Shown piece after piece: positions 1,185 to 12,419 of a DNA stretch of 64,000 nucleotides. How positions within the stretch are numbered: the first letter of the stretch is position 1; the number at the start of each line of letters is the position of its first letter. The position numbers and the translations under genes were made by a program. The stretch spans positions 4,607 to 68,606 of the forward strand of contig JBAYXX010000004.1 in NCBI GenBank assembly GCA_041673345.1, written 5' to 3'. The DNA is from Kiritimatiellia bacterium (GTDB taxonomy: Bacteria > Verrucomicrobiota > Kiritimatiellia > RFP12 > UBA1067). Below the pieces are notes generated by a model. It had not been told where the DNA came from and searched no databases. It was given only the letters and a program-made list of their open reading frames with translations.

Positions 1185-2903
1185 TTAAGGTTGGCACTGG
1201 GCGAACAGCTTGCTGGTCAGCTCTGTGATACAGTTGGTTGCACTCTCAACGCTTGTTGCGATTGTCTCCTGGGAGCCGCGTTGCTTGACCTCAATGGTGT
1301 TGCCCGCCAGGCCTCGGGCACCTACCACTACACGTACTGGGCAGCCGATCAGGTCAGCATCCTTAAACTTTACGCCAGGGCGTTCGGCGCGGTCATCAAT
1401 GAAAACATCGAGATGGTTGTTGACCAACTCTTGTTCCAGCTGCGCAACAACGTTGTTTGCATGATCGTTGGAGGGATCCAGATTCAGGATGGTCACAGCG
1501 AACGGAGCAACCGAGATGGGCCATACGATGCCGTCTTTATCGTTGCTTTGTTCGATTACAGCCTGCAAGGTACGGGTTACACCAATTCCATAACACCCCA
1601 TTACCATTTCCAGACTTTCGCCGTGATCATTCAGGTACTTGGCATCAAAAGACTCAGAGTATTTGGTGCCTAGTTTGAAGACGTGTCCAACCTCAATGCC
1701 GCGCTTCATTTGTAGTTTTTTCTGGCAGCGCGGACAGCAGTCCTCTGCCTGCACTATCACAAGGTCTTCATACGCAGTGATCTGTGCATCGCGCTTAAGA
1801 TCGACATTGCGGATATGAAGATCGTTTTTATTCGCACCGGCGGTAAGGTTGGTCGCATTTTCAAGAGCGATGTCCGCATAAATGCGGGTTGTGAGGCCAA
1901 CTGGTCCGGCAAAGCCGACCGTCGCGCCGGTGACAGCTTGAATAACAGAGTCATCCGCCATAGTCAATGTTTTTGCCCCTAGAATCCGTTTCAGTTTATG
2001 TTCATTGAGCTCTTGATCGCCAGGGATGAGTACCACAACCGGCTGCTCATCGGCCAGACAAATCAGGGTTTTAATAAACTCCGCGGGTTGGCATTTCAGG
2101 AAGGCGGCCAACTGGTCGATGGTTTTGATGGCGGGGGTGGGGATCTCTTCGATCGCCGGGCAGGAAGTGTGAGATTTTTTTGGTATAAAACGTTCGGCCT
2201 TCTCCTGGTTAGCAGCGTAGCCGCAGGCAGGGCAGTCAATGACCCCATCCTCACCGGAATCAGCGAGCACCATGAATTCGTGGGACCATTGGCCGCCGAT
2301 ATCACCTGTGTCGGCCTCGACTGGGCTGGCATTCAGACCGCAGCGTTTGAAGATACGCACATAGGCATCGTACATGGCTTTGTAGGAGGTGTCGGCCTGC
2401 TCCATGGTGGTGTCGAAGCTGTAGGCATCCTTCATAATAAACTCTTTGGCGCGCATCAGGCCGAAGCGTGGTCGGATCTCATCGCGGAACTTGGTCTGGA
2501 TCTGATAGACAGTGCAGGGCAGCTGGCGGTATGAGTTTATCTCAGCGGCGAGCAGTTCGGTGACAACCTCCTCATGGGTCGGGCCCAGGGTCATCAATCG
2601 TCCGGCGCGGTCTTTGAGCTTAAACATTCCGGGGCCCATGGTTTGAAGGCGGCCAGAGCGTTCCCAGATTTCGGCGGGCTGAAGGGCTGGCATCAGGATC
2701 TCCTGGGCTTCAGCACGGTTCATCTCTTCACGGACAATGGTGATGATTTTCTGCAGAGAGCGTAGTCCTAGAGGCATGAAGGTGTAGAGTCCACCTGAAA
2801 GTTTGCGCGCTAGTCCAGCGCGGATCAGCAGTTTATGACTGTTGATTTCAGCGTCCTGCGGGCTTTCCCGCAGGGTATTTAAAAGTGTTCGCGTCCAGCG
2901 CAT
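1185..2903 (-). CDS. proS: Prolyl-tRNA synthetase (bacterial type with insertion/editing domain)
   Basis: 572-aa ORF. The N-terminus MRWTRTLLNTLRESPQDAEINSHKLLIRAGLARKL, class II motifs (FRDE.RPRFGLMRAKEF) and its length fit bacterial ProS. Confidence 0.95.
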   Translation of the reverse strand: MRWTRTLLNTLRESPQDAEINSHKLLIRAGLARKLSGGLYTFMPLGLRSLQKIITIVREEMNRAEAQEILMPALQPAEIWERSGRLQTMGPGMFKLKDRAGRLMTLGPTHEEVVTELLAAEINSYRQLPCTVYQIQTKFRDEIRPRFGLMRAKEFIMKDAYSFDTTMEQADTSYKAMYDAYVRIFKRCGLNASPVEADTGDIGGQWSHEFMVLADSGEDGVIDCPACGYAANQEKAERFIPKKSHTSCPAIEEIPTPAIKTIDQLAAFLKCQPAEFIKTLICLADEQPVVVLIPGDQELNEHKLKRILGAKTLTMADDSVIQAVTGATVGFAGPVGLTTRIYADIALENATNLTAGANKNDLHIRNVDLKRDAQITAYEDLVIVQAEDCCPRCQKKLQMKRGIEVGHVFKLGTKYSESFDAKYLNDHGESLEMVMGCYGIGVTRTLQAVIEQSNDKDGIVWPISVAPFAVTILNLDPSNDHANNVVAQLEQELVNNHLDVFIDDRAERPGVKFKDADLIGCPVRVVVGARGLAGNTIEVKQRGSQETIATSVESATNCITELTSKLFAQCQP

Positions 2904-3066
2904 GTGGGTGGGGTCCTTCCTAACCTTAAACCTGATAAGAAATTAAGGTTCTATTTCAACGGAATTTTGCTTTTTAATCAAGAGAAAAATTCAAAATAAA
3001 AACACTTGCGTTAAAAGACAATAAAAGAGAGAATTAAGAGTTGCTAAAAGGCATATTAGGAGTGTA

Positions 3067-3939
3067 ATGAATTTGAGGGAAAAAGGGTTCACGTTAATTG
3101 AGTTACTGGTCGTCATAGCGATCATAGGCATGCTGTCAGCCGCGCTGGTTTTGACATTCTCAAAGGCGGGAAGCATGGCGCGGGACATGTCATGCAAGGC
3201 CAACCTGAAAAACTTAGGGCAGGCCGCGATGGCCTATTCTGTGCAGCATGGGCATTTTCCTGAAGCCTACTCCTATGAATCGGAGAGCATCGGAATGTTT
3301 CAAGGAAGGCTTTCCAGAGTGTTTAATGAGCGCAAGGGCTGGGTAAACTGGACTGGCGCTGGCAGATGGACGAACACAGATTCGCAGGGAGGCCTAATGG
3401 ATCCGCCTACGATTACAGGTAAGCTGGCCTATGAGTCGATTACCAATGGCACCTTGTGGGCTGACACTGGCAAGGATCTCTCCACCTATCTGTGTTCCGC
3501 CTATAAAAAGGCTGCTAATACCGCAGGAGAAAAGGATGTGTGGCGGTCGTATGTGATGAACCACCGGTTCCACTGGCATCATCGCGGCAACAACATCGGG
3601 CTGAATATGCATTGGATCAGTCGCTTTACGGTGAGCGGAAACAAGGATACTGACCGTAGCGCAGAGATGGTTTTAATGTTTGCGGAGCTGCCGGCGAGCA
3701 ATATCGACACCTCGGAGGCGGCTGCGGATGGCAAGCTTGATCCACATAATGACAATGAACATATTGGTTTTAATCACCAAGTTGGAAAGCGCAATGTCGC
3801 GCATGTTGTTTTTGCGGATGGACATGTGGGAGTGCTGATGGAGCCTGTCGGTGCCAGCGAGCCAGATCTGCTGGACCTTACCAAGGATCTCTGCGATGGT
3901 AAGGCTATTCGAAAAGAGGTGCTCCAGCGAATGCGGTAA
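3067..3939 (+). CDS. Prepilin-type N-terminal cleavage/methylation domain protein (type II secretion pseudopilin-like, DUF1559/H-X9-DG-like C-terminus)
   Basis: N-terminus MNLREKGFTLIELLVVIAIIGMLSAALV (a G|FTLIE prepilin peptidase site plus a hydrophobic helix). The C-terminus ...NHQVGKRNVAHVVFADGHVGVL resembles the H-X9-DG motif of the expanded PVC pseudopilin-like family, though here the spacing is longer. Confidence 0.85.
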   Translation: MNLREKGFTLIELLVVIAIIGMLSAALVLTFSKAGSMARDMSCKANLKNLGQAAMAYSVQHGHFPEAYSYESESIGMFQGRLSRVFNERKGWVNWTGAGRWTNTDSQGGLMDPPTITGKLAYESITNGTLWADTGKDLSTYLCSAYKKAANTAGEKDVWRSYVMNHRFHWHHRGNNIGLNMHWISRFTVSGNKDTDRSAEMVLMFAELPASNIDTSEAAADGKLDPHNDNEHIGFNHQVGKRNVAHVVFADGHVGVLMEPVGASEPDLLDLTKDLCDGKAIRKEVLQRMR

Positions 3940-4025
3940 GAGCATTTTGTTGGTATGTTTTATGCCTATAATAGAGTAGGTTAGTTTTGAAAAGGTGCTG
4001 GAATAAACACAGTGTGGGTTTTAAT

Positions 4026-7000
4026 ATGAGATTTTACGTTAATATTTTTTATTCGCTGGTGCTGACAGCGGTATTCAGCTTGAGCGCAGCCGCGCAGTAT
4101 ACGGTGCTGCCTCCTGAGCGTATTATGCAGTTTGACGACTATGACAGCCCGCAATGGACGCATACAGGTGAAGTTGCGCCACCCAAAGGTGGCCAGCTCT
4201 TGAAGTACGGGACATTTCACACTCAAACTAATGGATGGCGTATATCTGAGGCCAGAACTGGTTATGCAGGGGGTTACGGGGTAGTCGTACCGCCGAAGGT
4301 GCTAGCAAATTACGCATGTAATCTAAGGAATCGCGCAGGGGCATTTATTGAGTCTCCTCTCTATCAAGATGGTGTGGGAACGATCTATTTTGAGACAGTT
4401 AACTCATTCCCATACGCTCCTGTTTATTTGCATGTGTATATAACAACAAACATGTTTGATTATAGTGAGTGGAAAAGTGTTGAATTGGGAGCGGCAGAGG
4501 GCGGAAGCATCTCCAATGTGTGGCATGAGATTGATGTTCTGAGTCTGAACTATACCGCGCAAGGTCAGTTTAGACGATATGTCAACACTCAGAACTATCG
4601 AGGAAAAATCAAGGTGAAGTTAGTCAGAGAGCTAAATAACCCTGATTATACAAGTGCGGATTATGATTTCTTGGTTATTGACAACATTAGGATCTCGGCT
4701 CCACCGACTGATGTGGAGATCGTTAAAACAGAGGTGGTCAGCAATCCAGGTTATCCTAATGTTGGCGCTGACTTCACGGTGCGTTGTCATGTGAGCAACA
4801 CGGATATGTTTGTGCCGACAACGAACCGCACGGTGTCTCTGGTGCATCGCTGGCGTTATCTTACGCAGCAGGTGGATGCTTGGCAGACCAACCAGATGGA
4901 GCATATTGCAGGTACTGTTGATGCCAACGGTAACGATGTGATCTACGAGTGTACCATCTCCGCTCCAGACCAAACCGGCGATATTGAATACTACTATATC
5001 TGTGTTTTCGGGGGCTATGTGTATAAGTCGCTGGATTACACCGGCTTGCCCCACACTTACCCCTCGGAGAATCTCTCCCCGCAGGTGTTCCGTGGAAATG
5101 CCGCTGAAGAGGGGGAGTTCACGCTGCGTCTGCGCGAGTTTATCTCCGAATACGGCGCGGTCTATGTTGTCAGCGACCAGCATCCCAAGCCGATTAAGAT
5201 GGAGTTGGTGGGCGACCATGACTGGCGCGGCATGGTGCCGCTCACCAACAACGCGCCAATGAATCTGAGCTGGAGTCTGATGGCGACAGGGGAGTATTTG
5301 CAGGATGCCGAGAGCTATGAGACCAATCGCACCTACTGGAGCGCCGGCACCTCGGTGAGCGGTACAGCGCCTAACCTGCCCTATGGGGGGCTCTTGGTTG
5401 AGACCAATGCGAGTGGCCGCCTGACAGTAAAGATTGAGGACACTGGCTACATGATGGTTTCATTCAAAAGCGATACGAGAGAATTCCTGATCAGCCGTGC
5501 CCAGTATCAGAACTTTAATCTCTGGCCAGCGCGCGATGATTACTTTTCAGAGAGCAGCGGTCAGGCTGACAAACAGCAGTTTGAGAACACCTTTAATGAT
5601 TGGCCTTTGAGTCAGGATCGGGTTTTCTTTGAGCCCTTCACGGCGTATGTGTCAAACACAAATGTGTTTCAGCGTGATCCTTTTAAAACGCCGTCGGATT
5701 GGGCCGCCGGCAGTGCAGCCTATGTCTCAGAGCGGATACTGGACTTAAATCACGGTCCAGCGGGCATTAACAACTACCGCAACCTGGCACTGCGTCTCAA
5801 AGGCGGCGACCCAGTGCTTGGCTTGGGGTATGTTCATAACATGCGAGCCACCCTGCCGGATGGGGTGAAGCAGATTAAATTCAAGGCGCGGGTGGGCCAG
5901 AAATCTGACAATACTCAGATTTGCTGGCACCGTGATTATTTTACAAAAAACAACTATGTGGTTAAAGTTATTGCTGGAGCTGGGGAAAAATCTCCGGAAA
6001 ACCCGTCGATATCTGTGATTTTTTACTACCAGGACCCCCAGAACTTCTATGAGTTCCGTGTGGTGCAGCGAGCTAATTCGGCAGATCGGCGCGGCAGTGT
6101 CAATGACAGGCGGGCAGACCTCATTCTTTATAAGTGGATTAACGGGGTGGCGTATGACTTGAAAAGATCGAGCCCAACCTCCAACATTGATTTAAGCTCT
6201 GCGATTGATGTTCAGGTTGGAGTTTATAATAAGAGTGCAACCGAGACTTATTTGAAATGCAAGTATGGTCTTCCAGCCTCTGCTATAACCTTGGATTACA
6301 CTGATTCAAGCGCCCCCTTCGTGAAGGGGACATTTGGCGTGCTTTCATCAGAGTGCTTCTCTGGTTTTTCGAAGATGAGCCTGGAAAACTCCAATGCCGC
6401 GGGCGATCCAGTCACACCTAAGATTGATGTGATCGGGCCCACTCATACTGAAATGACACCAGCGCAGATGAGCGGTTGGTTTGTTCCCGCAGGAGCATTC
6501 GAGTTCAATCTGGCTGTCTCCCGTCCCGGTATTTACAAGGTGAAACCGAATCAGAAGCTGGATGTGTATCTGCAGGAGACAGACTATGACATTAATTCGA
6601 CTGTGGAACCCTCCGCTTCGGGAACCTCAGCGTGGAAGAAGCTGACTCAAATCAGCGTGAATAGTTATGAATATGCCGATGTGTCGCTGGATATTAAGAG
6701 ATGGAAGGCGCATTTTGTGATGCTGCAGGTGGGCGCGGATGGTAGCGATGTGGCCGTGGATGAGCTGGAAATCCGCTCGTGGCATGGTCAGGAGATCGGT
6801 GAAGGAGCTAGCAAGAATAAGGAGTGGCTGGCCTCGGAGGCTTGGATTGTCTCCAATGGTGTTGGTGCCGCCGCCAATCAGGTGATGCACCTGGATCATA
6901 TTCGGGCTAACCCTGCTGAGGATCAGGCGGTTCAGTCGCCTTTGATGCAAAACGGTATGGGATTGATGGAGTTTGATTATCGCGTACTGCAGGCACCCGC

Positions 7001-9572
7001 CAAGTTGACTGTGCAATATAAGGAGCAGCGTGGGGGGGACTGGGTTGATGTGAGCAGCATTACAGTCACTAATGTGACTGAATGGGCACATTTGACCGCC
7101 TATCTGGGATCGTTTGAAGCCGGCAGGCTTAGAGTGCTGAACCAGCGCACAGCCACAATCACCAATGCAATGGTGGAGATCAACAATGTAATTGTCTGGG
7201 ATGAGCCTTTTGTGGATGACAAATCCTGGACTGCTTACAACACCATGATTACCTCGGCTGATCCAATGCGTCTGCTGCTGGATAAGAGCAAGGGGTGTTT
7301 CCTGAACAACAGCGAGACCGCAGGTGCCAACCCTTCGCCCATGGACAGGGATGTTCCGTATCTTAGGAGCCCCGCGCTAGTCACAGGTCTGGGAACGCTG
7401 ACCTTCAAGGCGCGGGCCTATGACCCAGGTCAACCGGGGACTCTTTATGTTTACGCCTCAACCAATGGATGGAATCTGGCACGTGAGTTTTGGGTTTTGG
7501 TCTACCAAGTTGACAACATTGATCATAAATATTACCAGACATACAGCTTCAAGCCGATTGAAGGGGCCAAATATGATGCGATCCGTTTAGAGACAGAGAT
7601 TGGACCGAGCGTGAAACGAGTCTGCGTTGAGGAGGTTCTTATCGCAGAGCCTGTGCATCCAGGGTTTGATATTGTCAATGTCCAGTTACGGTTGATTGAT
7701 AGTGAAGGGGGGCTGGGTCCTCGCCACCAGCCATTGGCTTTCGAGGATGTGCATGTTGAGGCCATGGTTGCTAATCAGCAGCTTTCACCCTCCAATATAG
7801 TCCTGTACGTGAGTTATTATGTCGGCGATGATGTCTGGGGCGTTGACAACTGGCCGGCAGAGGATGTTGTCACCAAGCGGATGCACCCGGTGGCAGGTGA
7901 GGCGAATCTCTATCGAACCAGAGATGACGATGGCGGTGTGCCAGGGCTCTCACAAAGCCTGATTGGCGGCATTGTGGGACAAACTGAGAGCGTGGTCGTG
8001 CAGTACCGTGTCTGGGCCAGCTACATGGGAGGCATTCCGCTCTTTAAGTATCAGAAGAGGGAGGCGTTTCAAACCCCTGCCTGGTATTATCCAATTGATC
8101 TCAATGTGCAGCGCAGTGCTGAGGGCTGGTCTCCCTACTACATGGTTTACGGGGTTCCTGAGCAGTCGGTCTGGGTGAATGAAATTAACGTGGGTGATGT
8201 CAGGTATGACGCAAACTACAACCAGATTCACGGTATCTGGGAGTGGGCGTATATTGAGATAGCAGTGCCGGCCTGGCTTGATCTTGGAGGCTGGAAAGTA
8301 GATTTGGTCACTCAGAACAGCTACACAACACATACCATCCAGATTCCACAGGGGCTGCCAGACCATACGTTAGTCACCAATGGCTACGCCTTCTTTGTGA
8401 TATCAGAGTCCAAGCGGCCGAGCGCGCAGACACCTATGTTACCTAAGTCAGACTTTGGTTATGCCGGGCTGGGTGCCGCCTTGCCGAGGAATGTTCCGGG
8501 TGGGATACGGTTGCGCAGGCCGGAGGGGATGTATGAGCAGGCGATCGCCTTTGATGATGCGAAGTACAATGGTTATGGAAGCAGTTATAGCGGTCGGTCC
8601 TGGGCTGAAAATGATCCGGAAGGGAAATTCGTGTATGTGGGCGCGGAGCAGAGAGAGGGATCGCTTTCTCGAATAGGCGATGGCGATTCCACTAATACTT
8701 GGGTCTATCCGCTCTTCCCGCAATGGACTCCTGAACATGCGGATTTTGCCAAGAACTATACCCCGGGAATGCCCAACGGCTTACAGCCGTTGCCAAACGG
8801 TGATGCACTCTTCCCGGGGACCTCCAACGCACTGATCAACTCAAGCGTCACGCAGTTGAAGGGAACTCAGAACGGACGCCGAGTCTTAAATTACTCCTTG
8901 CGTTTGCCCATTGGGACAACGACTAACATTGTTTATGATATTGATGATTGGTATCGCCTGGTCTCGCTCAAATCAAATAATGTGGAGCAGTTGCCGCCTG
9001 CGAGTGCCCTCACGAATTACAAATATGATGTGGTGCAGATTCAGGGTGGCACGACTCTGACAGCGAAGATCAACCTGCGCGAGGACTTACTGGAATATCA
9101 GAATGACTATGAAGTGTTGAACTGGGTCTTGGGCTTTACCGAAGGCCCGTTGATTCCAATGTTTTATAACGGCAGGAATCTGACGCTTAAGGAGCAACAC
9201 TGGCTGGATGCGAATCCAACGGCCTCCAACGAGTTCCGTTGTGTGATCAGAGATTTTTCGCTGGACGCCGCGACAAACCTGTACGTCCGCCTGGAGATGA
9301 AGTTGAACGAGGCTAATCTGGAAGAAATTCAAGGGGGAGCTGTTCTCAAACTGCAGTCAAAAAAGAATCTCACTGATAATAAGTGGGATATGCTTGCCCA
9401 GTTTTATCTGACACCTGCTTCATTTGATAGCAATAATGAGTGCCGTGTGTATGTCAAAAACCCATTCGGATACATTGTGACTGAATATGATCAGGGCAGG
9501 CTTTTCCTGCGCTGGGTGATTGAGATGGATGACCCCCGTGTGATAATTCAAAAGCTGGAAAATACGCCTTAA
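4026..9572 (+). CDS. Giant secreted protein (~1848 aa) with repeated beta-sandwich-like modules and a lamin-tail-domain-like segment; function unknown
   Basis: One uninterrupted ORF. I chose the internal ATG at 4026 because it yields a signal peptide MRFYVNIFYSLVLTAVFSLSAAAQ. The track start at 3987 is a TTG with no signal peptide. See findings for the module signatures. Confidence 0.8.
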   Translation: MRFYVNIFYSLVLTAVFSLSAAAQYTVLPPERIMQFDDYDSPQWTHTGEVAPPKGGQLLKYGTFHTQTNGWRISEARTGYAGGYGVVVPPKVLANYACNLRNRAGAFIESPLYQDGVGTIYFETVNSFPYAPVYLHVYITTNMFDYSEWKSVELGAAEGGSISNVWHEIDVLSLNYTAQGQFRRYVNTQNYRGKIKVKLVRELNNPDYTSADYDFLVIDNIRISAPPTDVEIVKTEVVSNPGYPNVGADFTVRCHVSNTDMFVPTTNRTVSLVHRWRYLTQQVDAWQTNQMEHIAGTVDANGNDVIYECTISAPDQTGDIEYYYICVFGGYVYKSLDYTGLPHTYPSENLSPQVFRGNAAEEGEFTLRLREFISEYGAVYVVSDQHPKPIKMELVGDHDWRGMVPLTNNAPMNLSWSLMATGEYLQDAESYETNRTYWSAGTSVSGTAPNLPYGGLLVETNASGRLTVKIEDTGYMMVSFKSDTREFLISRAQYQNFNLWPARDDYFSESSGQADKQQFENTFNDWPLSQDRVFFEPFTAYVSNTNVFQRDPFKTPSDWAAGSAAYVSERILDLNHGPAGINNYRNLALRLKGGDPVLGLGYVHNMRATLPDGVKQIKFKARVGQKSDNTQICWHRDYFTKNNYVVKVIAGAGEKSPENPSISVIFYYQDPQNFYEFRVVQRANSADRRGSVNDRRADLILYKWINGVAYDLKRSSPTSNIDLSSAIDVQVGVYNKSATETYLKCKYGLPASAITLDYTDSSAPFVKGTFGVLSSECFSGFSKMSLENSNAAGDPVTPKIDVIGPTHTEMTPAQMSGWFVPAGAFEFNLAVSRPGIYKVKPNQKLDVYLQETDYDINSTVEPSASGTSAWKKLTQISVNSYEYADVSLDIKRWKAHFVMLQVGADGSDVAVDELEIRSWHGQEIGEGASKNKEWLASEAWIVSNGVGAAANQVMHLDHIRANPAEDQAVQSPLMQNGMGLMEFDYRVLQAPAKLTVQYKEQRGGDWVDVSSITVTNVTEWAHLTAYLGSFEAGRLRVLNQRTATITNAMVEINNVIVWDEPFVDDKSWTAYNTMITSADPMRLLLDKSKGCFLNNSETAGANPSPMDRDVPYLRSPALVTGLGTLTFKARAYDPGQPGTLYVYASTNGWNLAREFWVLVYQVDNIDHKYYQTYSFKPIEGAKYDAIRLETEIGPSVKRVCVEEVLIAEPVHPGFDIVNVQLRLIDSEGGLGPRHQPLAFEDVHVEAMVANQQLSPSNIVLYVSYYVGDDVWGVDNWPAEDVVTKRMHPVAGEANLYRTRDDDGGVPGLSQSLIGGIVGQTESVVVQYRVWASYMGGIPLFKYQKREAFQTPAWYYPIDLNVQRSAEGWSPYYMVYGVPEQSVWVNEINVGDVRYDANYNQIHGIWEWAYIEIAVPAWLDLGGWKVDLVTQNSYTTHTIQIPQGLPDHTLVTNGYAFFVISESKRPSAQTPMLPKSDFGYAGLGAALPRNVPGGIRLRRPEGMYEQAIAFDDAKYNGYGSSYSGRSWAENDPEGKFVYVGAEQREGSLSRIGDGDSTNTWVYPLFPQWTPEHADFAKNYTPGMPNGLQPLPNGDALFPGTSNALINSSVTQLKGTQNGRRVLNYSLRLPIGTTTNIVYDIDDWYRLVSLKSNNVEQLPPASALTNYKYDVVQIQGGTTLTAKINLREDLLEYQNDYEVLNWVLGFTEGPLIPMFYNGRNLTLKEQHWLDANPTASNEFRCVIRDFSLDAATNLYVRLEMKLNEANLEEIQGGAVLKLQSKKNLTDNKWDMLAQFYLTPASFDSNNECRVYVKNPFGYIVTEYDQGRLFLRWVIEMDDPRVIIQKLENTP

Positions 9573-9595: not shown

Positions 9596-9742
9596 TCAAA
9601 CGCCGCGCAGGGTTTTGACAATAAAGCCGAGCAGAATCAGCAGCGCAACGACGATCAGGGCTTTGCGTTCACTGGGTGTCAGCCAGGTGAACAGCGGCGT
9701 GCGCTTCCCTGGGAAGAGATCATGTGTTTTTTTGGAGTCCAT
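9596..9742 (-). CDS. Candidate 48-aa single-pass membrane protein (below the ORF-track length cutoff)
   Basis: Manual translation: MDSKKTHDLFPGKRTPLFTWLTPSERKALIVVALLILLGFIVKTLRGV*. It has a polar N-terminus and one clear TM helix. GAAGGA lies about 12 nt upstream of the ATG. It sits in the gap between the giant gene and leuS. Confidence 0.35.
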   Translation of the reverse strand: MDSKKTHDLFPGKRTPLFTWLTPSERKALIVVALLILLGFIVKTLRGV

Positions 9743-9848: not shown

Positions 9849-12419
9849 ATGACAAACAATGAATACGATTTTGCGGCCATAGAAAAAAAATGGCAGTCTT
9901 ACTGGGAGGAACATAAAACATTCAAGGTGAATGATTTTGAGGAGGGTAAACCAAAGTTTTACTGTCTCGATATGTTTCCTTACCCCAGCGGCGCCGGCTT
10001 GCATGTTGGCCACCCCGAAGGTTACACTGCCACCGATATACTGTGTCGCTACAAGCGTATGTGTGGTTACAATGTGCTGCATCCAATGGGGTGGGACGCG
10101 TTCGGCCTGCCAGCCGAGCAGTATGCGGTTGAGACCGGCACCCATCCGGCGGTGACCACTGAAAAAAATATTAATAATTTCAGGAAGCAGATCAAGGCGC
10201 TTGGGTTCAGCTATGACTGGGATCGGGAAATCAACACTACTGATCCAGGTTATTACAAGTGGACCCAATGGATCTTTACCAAGCTCTATGAAAAGGGACT
10301 TGCTTATATTGCTGAAGCCCCGGTGAACTGGTGCCCGACACTAGGAACTGTGCTTGCCAATGAGGAAGTGATTAACGGACGCAGTGAGCGCGGAAACCAC
10401 CCAGTGGAGAGAAGGCCCATGCGGCAGTGGATGCTGCGTATCACTAATTATGCTGAGCGCCTGTTGAATGACCTCGATGATCTGGATTGGCCGGAGGGCA
10501 TCAAAGAGATGCAGCGCAACTGGATCGGCAGATCAAACGGTGCTGAGGTTGAATTTGAAATTGCCGGAATCGAAAAATCAGTGATGGTTTATACCACTCG
10601 CCCTGATACGCTGTTTGGTGCCACCTATATGGTGCTCGCCCCCGAACATGAGCTGGTGGAGCTGGTGGTCAGCGACGAGCAGCGCGCCGCCGTGGCTGCG
10701 TATTGCAAGGCCGCAGTTTTTAAAAGTGATATGGACCGCACCGAATTGAACACCGACAAGACCGGAGTTTTCACCGGCGCATACGCAATCAACCCTGTGA
10801 CAGGCGGAAAGATTCCTCTCTGGATTGCCGACTACGTGCTGATCAGCTATGGCACGGGAAGTATCATGGCTGTGCCCGCGCATGATGAGCGTGACTTTGA
10901 GTTCGCCAAAAAGTTTGATATTCCTGTTAAATGTGTTATCACCCCGGATGCCGCGAGCGCGGCGGCTCAGGGCGTGAGTGTCGAGGCAGTGCTGCGCGGT
11001 GAGTGTAGCTGGAGCGGTGCAGGCACGATGATCGACTCCGCAAATGATTGCGGCCTGGACATCAATGGGCTGGAGGTTGCGCAGTCGATTGCACGGACGA
11101 TTGAGTGGCTCGAAAAGTCAGGCATCGGCAAAGGGGCGGTTAAGTATAAACTGCGCGACTGGCTGTTCAGCCGCCAGCGCTACTGGGGTGAGCCATTCCC
11201 GTTGATCCACATGGAGGATGGCAGCACCAGGCTGGTTGCGCAAAGCGACCTGCCGCTGACGCTGCCGGAGATGCAGGACTTTAAACCGAACGCGGATGGA
11301 GCCCCTCCCCTGGCTAAGGCAACTGAGTGGCTCACCTATGTTGATCCTGTCACTGGCCTGAAAGGGCGGCGTGAAACCAATACCATGCCGCAGTGGGCCG
11401 GTTCCTGCTGGTATTACCTGCGTTACATTGACCCGCACAACTCCGAGGCCGCCTTTGACCAGGCAAAAGAGCGCTACTGGATGCCGGTGGACCTCTACGT
11501 GGGTGGTGCTGAGCACGCTGTCTTACATCTGCTTTACGCGCGTTTTTGGCATAAAGTCCTCTTTGATCTAGGTTATGTCTCTACCTGCGAGCCATTTAAA
11601 AAGCTGGTCAACCAGGGGATGATTCTGGGTATCTCCTATAAGGATAGTCGTGGAACACTGGTTCCCATGGAGCAGGTTGACATGCGCTCTGAGGGTGTCT
11701 TTCACACTGAGAGCGAGGAGCGGTTGGTTGAGTTTCCCGCCAAAATGTCTAAATCATTGAAAAATGTTGTTAACCCGGATGATGTGATTTTTGAGTACGG
11801 CGCTGACAGTATGCGTTTGTATGAGATGTTCATGGGGCCTCTGGAAGCGGTTAAGCCTTGGAACACCAAAGGCGTTGAGGGGGTGTTCCGCTTCTTAAAA
11901 CGCGCCTACCGTATGGTGGTTGAACAGACTTTGACCGATGAACCGCTCGACGAAGATGGGCTGCGCGTTTTGCATGCGACCATCAAAAAGGTCACCGACG
12001 ATCTGGAGTCCATGAGCTTCAACACCGCGATCAGCCAGATGATGATCTTCGTCAACAACTTCTCGGGCAGCCAAAAGACGCTCAACCGCCAGGCGGCCGA
12101 GACCTTTGTGTTGCTGCTCGCTCCCTTTGCGCCGCATGTGTGTGAAGAGCTGTGGGCGCACCTGGGCCACAACACAACCCTCGCTTATGCCCCCTGGCCC
12201 CAGTATAATGAGGATTTTATCAAGGTAGCCCAGGCGGAGGTGCTGGTGCAGGTCAATGGCAAACCCAAAGCCCGCATCATGATGGAGGCGGATCTGGGCG
12301 AGGAGCTGATGCGAGCGGCCGCGCTGGAGGGCGAGGCGGTACGCACGGCGATCGGTCAAAAAAAGATCGTCAAGGTGGTTTGTGTGCCTAATCGTCTGGT
12401 TAACATTGTGGCACTCTAA
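9849..12419 (+). CDS. leuS: Leucyl-tRNA synthetase
   Basis: 856-aa ORF with [18 protein letters not shown] (HIGH region), KMSKSLKN (KMSKS) and a CP1 editing domain. Confidence 0.97.

Follow-up and report, generated by a model that had tools for sequence, protein, structure and literature searches.

PilY1/PilC proteins are thought to ride on the type IV pilus filament and to mediate adhesion. A pilin that binds a secreted non-pilin partner has been described for CofB-CofJ (PMC6048534) and for TcpB-TcpF (PMC9565799, PMC10120004). In bacteria of the Planctomycetes-Verrucomicrobia-Chlamydiae (PVC) group, few protein families of unknown function are as large as the DUF1559/SBP_bac_10 pilin-like proteins, and a literature search found no experimental function for them. 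Genes combining N_methyl and SBP_bac_10 domains are dispersed in the planctomycete Tuwongella immobilis, where they are often bordered by genes for signal-peptide proteins (PMC8567305). The same search found no papers on pseudopilins of Kiritimatiellae. Here, a gene of this kind was analyzed in a 64,000-nt stretch of DNA (the window) from a Kiritimatiellia bacterium. It lies directly ahead of the gene for a very large secreted protein, referred to below as the giant. The adjacency of the two genes is far beyond chance, and their shared inheritance supports a functional coupling.

One genome per species was scanned, which yielded 29 loci. A pilin ortholog was found directly upstream of the giant gene, on the same strand, in all 17 loci that had DNA upstream of a full-length giant ortholog (tblastn), and the spacer between the genes measured 58-86 nt in 14 of these. 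Two partial paralogs (L023 and L027) had no pilin. The identities of the two proteins drop together from ortholog to ortholog, with pilin/giant values of 78/81, 58/60, 54/55, 44/45, and 37/39%. The pair was also found outside its usual gene block in a metagenome-assembled genome (MAG) from the rumen (L016), in genome G234 (L046), and on two metagenome contigs (L065/L066), where the N_methyl gene lies 57 nt upstream and ABC and Mg-chelatase genes lie downstream. One flank alone was kept at L021, L024, L028, and L059; the last of these (genome G246) has the order pilin, giant (24-25% identity), leuS. A preliminary description of this stretch had made a link between the two genes depend on conserved synteny, and synteny was found, both in the 17 loci and at L046, L059, and L065/L066.

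The rates of evolution of the two genes were compared next. With proS and leuS regressed out, the pilin and giant distances gave a partial r of 0.71 (permutation p ~2e-4), compared to partial correlations of 0-0.5 for the control genes HU, hisS, peptidase, and htpG. This mirror-tree sample consists of ten related taxa, which makes the result suggestive and not proof. Both genes change at 3-4 times the rate of the flanking genes, with mean distances of 0.87 for the pilin and 1.07 for the giant against 0.22-0.30. Functional coupling of the pilin and the giant is therefore supported by conserved adjacency, short and constant spacing, and correlated rates. A chance adjacency brought about by massive expansion of pilin genes was considered and rejected. 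Prepilin-like genes number only about 26-30 in the genome and mostly lie within machinery clusters, and there are about 5-7 DUF1559 genes per genome; the pilin gene of the window is solitary and the only prepilin-like gene on its contig. Our reading is that the pair, probably with a 48-codon gene downstream, constitutes a single functional unit that is passed on vertically within a family of Kiritimatiellia.

The preliminary description had recognized a prepilin-type protein in the upstream open reading frame (ORF), and the profile searches agreed. Its N-terminus, MNLREKG/FTLIELLVVIAIIG, has a leader of seven residues with cleavage at G7/F8, and Glu5 and Gly14 are present in the mature helix. 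N_methyl (PF07963) matched with 35.3 bits against a Pfam gathering cut-off of 21.2, and DUF1559/SBP_bac_10 (PF07596) with 37.5 against 23.3 bits, covering profile positions 7-140 of 268. TIGR02532 of NCBIfam scored 31.9 against a cut-off of 16.3. The NCBIfam equivalogs for pseudopilins of the type II secretion system (T2SS) all scored under their cut-offs (GspG 35.7/88.85, GspH 35/80, GspI 17.2/44.35, GspJ 15.2/64.85), and their alignments were restricted to residues ~5-66. Also, a PDB sequence search with the pilin matched the N-terminal helix alone. TIGR04294, the H-X9-DG profile of NCBIfam, gave no match at E <= 0.1, probably because the box in this protein has the form H-QVGKRNVAHVVFA-DG, that is, H-X13-DG, a spacing kept in the orthologs. 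The box occupies window positions 3784-3831 (residues 240-255) and reads NHQVGKRNVAHVVFADG. The motif FADGHV, placed at the C-terminus in the earlier account, actually lies at residues 250-255 and is followed by a conserved, Cys-bearing tail of 35 residues (..LCDGKAI..). The orthologous pilins all keep the G/F cleavage site, Glu5, Gly14, three Cys, H-X13-DG, and a tail of the form ..L(T/A)xxLCxG... In their source records, homologs are called "type II secretion system protein" or prepilin/H-X9-DG proteins.

The giant has the marks of a secreted protein. Every ortholog opens with a comparable signal peptide, and most begin at the MR.. position; a start at TTG 3987 instead would lengthen the protein by 13 residues, to 1,861 aa. 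In a hydropathy scan of the giant, the signal peptide was the sole hydrophobic segment, and the protein has neither a Cys lipobox nor an anchor at its C-terminus. This agrees with the preliminary description, which had reported a signal peptide and neither a transmembrane anchor, a lipobox, nor a sorting signal, and had quoted the C-terminus (..RWVIEMDDPRVIIQKLENTP) correctly. That C-terminus is the conserved final strand of the family core. A C-terminal sorting signal was considered and rejected, since the conserved terminal RWVIE..DPR forms the final strand of the core domain. C-terminal extensions of other kinds occur in some homologs and are missing from the giant of the window.

Searches of Pfam, NCBIfam, and PDB sequences with the giant gave nothing significant, and neither the giant nor 12 members of its family had a Pfam or NCBIfam match to the PilY1/PilC domain. 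The giant was modeled by AlphaFold as two halves, using alignments of 50-52 homologs. Both models were nearly all beta, with a mean predicted local distance difference test (pLDDT) score of 86.8 for the first half (residues 1-925) and 79.3 for the second (residues 926-1848). Foldseek comparison to the PDB matched the MAM-Ig-FN ectodomains of RPTPmu/PTPRK, reelin repeats, the meprin MAM domain, and neuropilin, and further matches were to CBM4, CBM22, CBM66, concanavalin-like jelly rolls, and macroglobulin-type domains. The Foldseek probabilities were 0.99-1.0, yet the template modeling (TM) scores were 0.1-0.6 and identity was 8-15%, with no sequence-family matches; low TM-scores are to be expected when the query is multi-domain. 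No catalytic fold was recognized in the models by this comparison. From the predicted secondary structure, dips in model confidence, and conserved motifs, we read the giant as some twelve beta-sandwich domains in a row (Table 1).

Conservation of the giant is rather even along its length (0.41-0.58) and peaks in a region with the motifs VWxNExN .. YIEIAVP .. LxGW .. NGYAFFVI .. RLRRPxGMYE. The Pfam lamin tail domain (LTD, PF00932) was the top match to this region in four of 10 members, under threshold and with a best E of 0.04; the segment from the window itself was unmatched, and a profile of the segment found no match in the PDB. These data suggest, weakly, a lamin-tail-domain-like identity for residues ~1372-1525. 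Two other segments, residues 498-526 (window 5517-5603) and 1066-1115 (window 7221-7370), have a pLDDT of 31-58 yet above-average conservation, and carry the motifs FSESSGQxxKQxFxNTFDxWP and R..LD.SK.CFLNNS, respectively. Both are candidate loops for binding a partner or ligand.

The first domain of the giant, D1, starts with LPxxRhhxFDDY. It is duplicated in tandem in the closest relatives, which reach ~2,200 aa (P0004-P0011, L001-L003, L010, L017), and is single again, as in the window, in more distant orthologs of ~1,820-1,860 aa. Some giant homologs append InlB-type B-repeats, Flg_new, PKD, Fn3-associated, or FGE-sulfatase domains, and these are kinds of modules typical of extracellular or surface proteins. 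A word-index search found 65 homologs, all from Kiritimatiellia-type MAGs, some of which are labeled Lentisphaeraceae or Verrucomicrobia. HMMER with the C-terminal half of the giant over 1.84 billion representatives found just 222 proteins, almost all between 1,700 and 3,200 aa long.

The pair sits among housekeeping genes, and the aminoacyl-tRNA synthetase genes proS and leuS border it, as had been stated. The left flank consists of hisS, HU, and proS (minus strand) and the right flank of leuS, a Zn-peptidase gene, and htpG (plus strand). This order around the pair is kept over ~15 kb in most loci. The preliminary description had taken the pair for an inserted accessory cassette. Family-wide synteny, ordinary GC content, and the single-copy state of the giant do not support this as a recent event, and a recent horizontal insertion was rejected on the first two of these grounds. 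The pair could have been inserted long ago, since it is also found in other contexts.

A candidate sigma-70-like promoter, with a predicted transcription start near 3041, lies upstream of the pilin gene. Its boxes did not vary when the DNA between proS and the pilin gene was aligned for 10 loci (pilin identity 37-78%). Additional conserved A/T-rich boxes, ATAAGAAATTAAG and ATTTCAACGGAATT, are present in this divergent region (window 2904-3066). The distance from the pilin stop codon to the giant ATG is exactly 86 nt, the figure given in the preliminary description. This spacer contains no terminator-like hairpin, no stable fold (z-score 0.39), and no Rfam match, and a regulatory RNA or terminator within it was therefore rejected. 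The giant gene does not have a Shine-Dalgarno sequence comparable to that of the pilin gene. Taken together, these signals would fit a single transcript from which the pilin is translated more than the giant. A block directly after the pilin stop codon, TTGGTATGTTTTATGC(C/T) (window 3947-3977), is conserved in the five closest loci and not farther. TATAAT (3972-3977) follows it in the window, and the block might represent an internal promoter or a signal of another kind. An internal promoter at TATAAT was considered and rejected, as it has no good -35 box, is conserved in the closest relatives only, and was unflagged by the promoter scan.

Table 1. Features of the pilin-giant locus, with positions in the 64,000-nt window
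Feature	Position	Strand	Length or residues	Remarks
proS	1185..2903	-		conserved left flank
Sigma-70-like promoter candidate for the pair	3006..3034	+		-35 TTGCGT 3006-3011, 17-nt spacer, -10 GAGAAT 3029-3034
Shine-Dalgarno sequence AGGAG	3058..3062	+		4 nt ahead of pilin ATG; invariant in 10/10 aligned loci
Prepilin-type (class III signal peptide) DUF1559 pilin-like protein	3067..3939	+	290 aa	
Pilin-giant spacer	3940..4025	+	86 nt	pilin stop to giant ATG 4026
Giant secreted all-beta protein	4026..9572	+	1,848 aa	single-copy in the 4.63-Mb genome
Sec-type signal peptide of giant	4026..4097	+	residues 1-24	..FSLSAAA/QY; sole hydrophobic segment
D1, N-terminal jelly roll of giant	4098..4703	+	residues ~25-226	MAM/CBM-type Foldseek matches; pLDDT ~90
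Ig-like domain of giant			residues 227-358	model reading
Beta-sandwich of giant			residues 359-497	model reading
Large LamG/ConA-like region of giant			residues ~525-925	model reading
Two jelly rolls of giant			residues ~971-1065 and 1111-1210	model reading
Second Ig-like domain of giant			residues 1211-1345	model reading
LTD-like region of giant (weak assignment)	8139..8600	+	residues 1372-1525	most conserved region; mean identity 0.58
Two C-terminal domains of giant			residues 1601-1848	model reading
Single-pass membrane-protein ORF	9596..9742	-	48 codons	convergent with giant
leuS	9849..12419	+		conserved right flank

The small ORF at the end of the giant gene has a basic N-terminus, the motif LTPxERxAL (LTPSERKAL in the window), one transmembrane helix, and a basic end. 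An intact ORF of 44-59 codons is present at the same convergent position in at least 20 related loci. It travels with the giant gene, since loci in which another gene than leuS lies downstream (L021, L024, L028, L065, and L046) keep it as well. The N-terminal style of the encoded protein may resemble that of the membrane anchor in ComEA-like proteins. A conserved third protein gene of normal size downstream of the giant was rejected, as the downstream contexts vary among loci.

No T2SSE ATPase, secretin, or prepilin peptidase gene was found on the contig that carries the window (C4), in keeping with the earlier statement that machinery for the T2SS or type IV pili (T4P) is not nearby. The rest of the genome encodes 10 matches to T2SSE-type ATPases, six secretins, and a single prepilin peptidase (Peptidase_A24, 72 bits, G000:C36:27844-28194). 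Two other operon-like units with an orphan DUF1559 gene were seen in the same genome. On contig C135 (1-4194), the DUF1559 pilin-like gene comes after a LacI-type regulator gene and before a gene for a secreted CBM4/9 protein (at least 776 aa). On contig C160 (261-5443), the order is a regulator-like gene, a pilin-like gene, a gene for a 378-aa protein, and a secreted GH5 gene. The pair of the window is unlike these units: it lacks a regulator, lies among housekeeping genes, is inherited strictly as a single copy, and has a partner that is not an enzyme.

Our leading reading, which we hold tentatively, is that the pilin may be a dedicated adaptor that links a type-4-filament machine, supplied in trans, to the export or surface display of a polymer-binding giant. 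Transcription of both genes would begin at the conserved promoter candidate ahead of the pilin gene. The pilin would be inserted in the inner membrane, cut at G7/F8 by the single prepilin peptidase of the genome, and, because it retains Glu5 and Gly14, taken up by a T2SS- or T4P-type machine encoded elsewhere. The giant would cross the inner membrane via Sec and fold in the periplasm into its dozen or so beta-sandwich domains. Its cognate pilin would then carry it through a secretin and/or hold it on the fiber or cell surface, where the giant may bind a polymer, most likely a glycan, in adhesion or substrate capture. Besides the conserved pairing and coupled rates of the two genes, the features of the two proteins, the machinery in trans, and the published Tuwongella, CofB-CofJ, and TcpB-TcpF cases, an adaptor is favored by other DUF1559 genes that also precede genes for secreted proteins, both in the C135 and C160 units and where relocated paralogs in relatives stand before GH5 or GH42-like genes. 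A wider form of this idea, which we consider rather unlikely, is that DUF1559 pilins are exchangeable, cargo-specific adaptors of a shared machine, each encoded directly ahead of its own secreted partner, which it would attach to the fiber or pass through the secretin. The pair of the window would then be a constitutive, housekeeping-embedded, non-enzymatic core member of such a set in PVC bacteria and the 48-residue protein its third, previously unnoticed component.

The distribution of the two genes in more distant relatives sets bounds on the dedicated adaptor. In the pilin tree, one "tailed" subfamily holds all giant-adjacent pilins except the long-branched L038, and a well-supported subclade inside it corresponds to genera g2, g3, and g5 of the same family. 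Several observations there and elsewhere weigh against the adaptor. The pilins of these three genera have mostly been relocated ahead of GH5, GH42-like, or unrelated genes, and the giant in these genera has diverged to ~23-25% identity or was undetected. Giant homologs at 24-30% identity are often without an adjacent pilin gene. The linkage is thus strong, not obligatory. In addition, the cognate machine cannot be named because no machinery gene lies near the pair, the rate correlation is a suggestive statistic from ten related taxa, and the proposed glycan binding draws on fold resemblances with low TM-scores. Of about 20 distant giant homologs, five have a DUF1559 gene within ~2.5 kb, in divergent orientation and from a different clade. 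At L043 (G095:C31, 288-3112), a secreted protein of ~530-620 aa that is not a pilin is encoded ahead of a diverged giant, and its gene is followed by an intergenic stretch of tandem repeats of ~850 bp.

Another possible explanation, unlikely in our judgment, is that no filament is involved and the pilin is a monomeric inner-membrane protein that serves as a periplasmic tether or chaperone. Its DUF1559 domain would bind or organize the giant, which would stay in the envelope. N_methyl+SBP_bac_10 proteins of T. immobilis were found in detergent-soluble membrane fractions by proteomics (PMC8567305), as a tether would be, and the lack of linked machinery genes, the lack of a recognizable outer-membrane sorting signal on the giant, and the small inner-membrane protein gene that travels with the pair all point the same way. 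However, the cleavage site, Glu5, and Gly14 are strictly kept, which is expected for filament assembly and needless for a static anchor. The extracellular modules added to giant homologs and the fast evolution of the pair compared to its flanks also fit surface exposure better than a tether in the envelope.

It is less likely still that the giant is an ordinary T2SS substrate beside a generic pseudopilin, which would serve its machine generally, for example as an alternative major or minor subunit, with no specific recognition of the giant. The several T2SS/T4P-type machines in the genome would allow this, and in some genera the pilin lineage can function apart from the giant, beside GH5/GH42-like or housekeeping genes. 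Yet a generic subunit would have no need to adjoin one single-copy gene down to ~31% identity or to move with it to new contexts, and the rates of pilin and giant are more closely correlated with each other than with those of the flanking genes. Moreover, relatives in which the pilin has left this position have a strongly diverged giant or none. Finally, the pair could be neighbors without a functional link, a frozen accident of the unshuffled hisS-HU-proS/leuS-htpG neighborhood, whose synteny over 15 kb in most loci makes conservation of the pair within the block weak evidence, but this is very improbable and already disfavored given that the pair stays together outside the block (L016, L065/L066, L046) and with one flank (L021, L024, L028, L059), that the order of a DUF1559 gene and then a secreted-protein gene recurs at other loci of the genome, and that the rates of the two genes are coupled.

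The locus is an unusually clean test case for DUF1559 proteins, with one pilin-like gene, a single-copy partner, no noise from paralogs, a conserved promoter candidate, and a partner family of no more than about 220 clusters among the 1.84 billion representatives. If the pilin is indeed a dedicated adaptor, it would help to explain how large glycan-binding proteins are placed on the surface of PVC bacteria that are without SusC/D-type systems. Compared to known PVC proteins, the pilin resembles the DUF1559/SBP_bac_10 (PF07596) proteins of PVC/Planctomycetota (TIGR04294) in its N_methyl and DUF1559 domains and in being an orphan gene beside that of a signal-peptide protein. The Planctomycetales family is expanded to 41 or more genes, unlike the number per genome found here, and typical DUF1559 proteins differ from this subfamily with its H-X13-DG box, extra 35-residue Cys tail, and one specific giant partner. 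The Verru_Chthon cassette (TIGR02596-TIGR02600) of Verrucomicrobia/Chthoniobacter likewise combines PVC prepilin-type proteins with a very large protein. However, the match of the pilin to protein D of that cassette reached 17.4 bits against a cut-off of 70 and was confined to the N-terminal helix, no NCBIfam model matched the giant, and the unit of the window has two or three genes instead of four. The strings of jelly-roll and Ig-like domains read in the giant resemble multi-lectin and MAM-CBM-Ig surface proteins (the RPTPmu ectodomain, reelin repeats, and CBM22/CBM4 tandems) in domain type only, with TM-scores of 0.1-0.3.

Among filament systems, the locus is similar to PilY1/PilC and the type IVa minor pilins in that a large Sec-exported non-pilin protein is encoded beside one or more pilin-like genes. 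It differs in having no PilY1/PilC domain, a giant made of beta-sandwiches and not a beta-propeller, and no sequence relationship, and it has a single pilin-like gene with housekeeping flanks in place of the fimU-pilVWX minor pilin set. The proposed adaptor would share the experimentally demonstrated logic of CofB-CofJ and TcpB-TcpF and would be more loosely comparable to the minor pilins with PilY1; the locus belongs to none of these families. CofJ and TcpF are Sec-dependent soluble proteins recognized by one pilin and exported or displayed by its machine, as is proposed here for the giant. They are ~35-40 kDa, are encoded inside a pilus operon, and carry a flexible N-terminal signal, whereas the giant is ~200 kDa, its machinery is unlinked, and its conserved N-terminal motif, LPxxRhhxFDDY, is part of the folded, duplicable D1. 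If the giant is the 200-kDa cargo of a dedicated adaptor, the principle of CofB-CofJ and TcpB-TcpF would be extended to another phylum and to another size of cargo.

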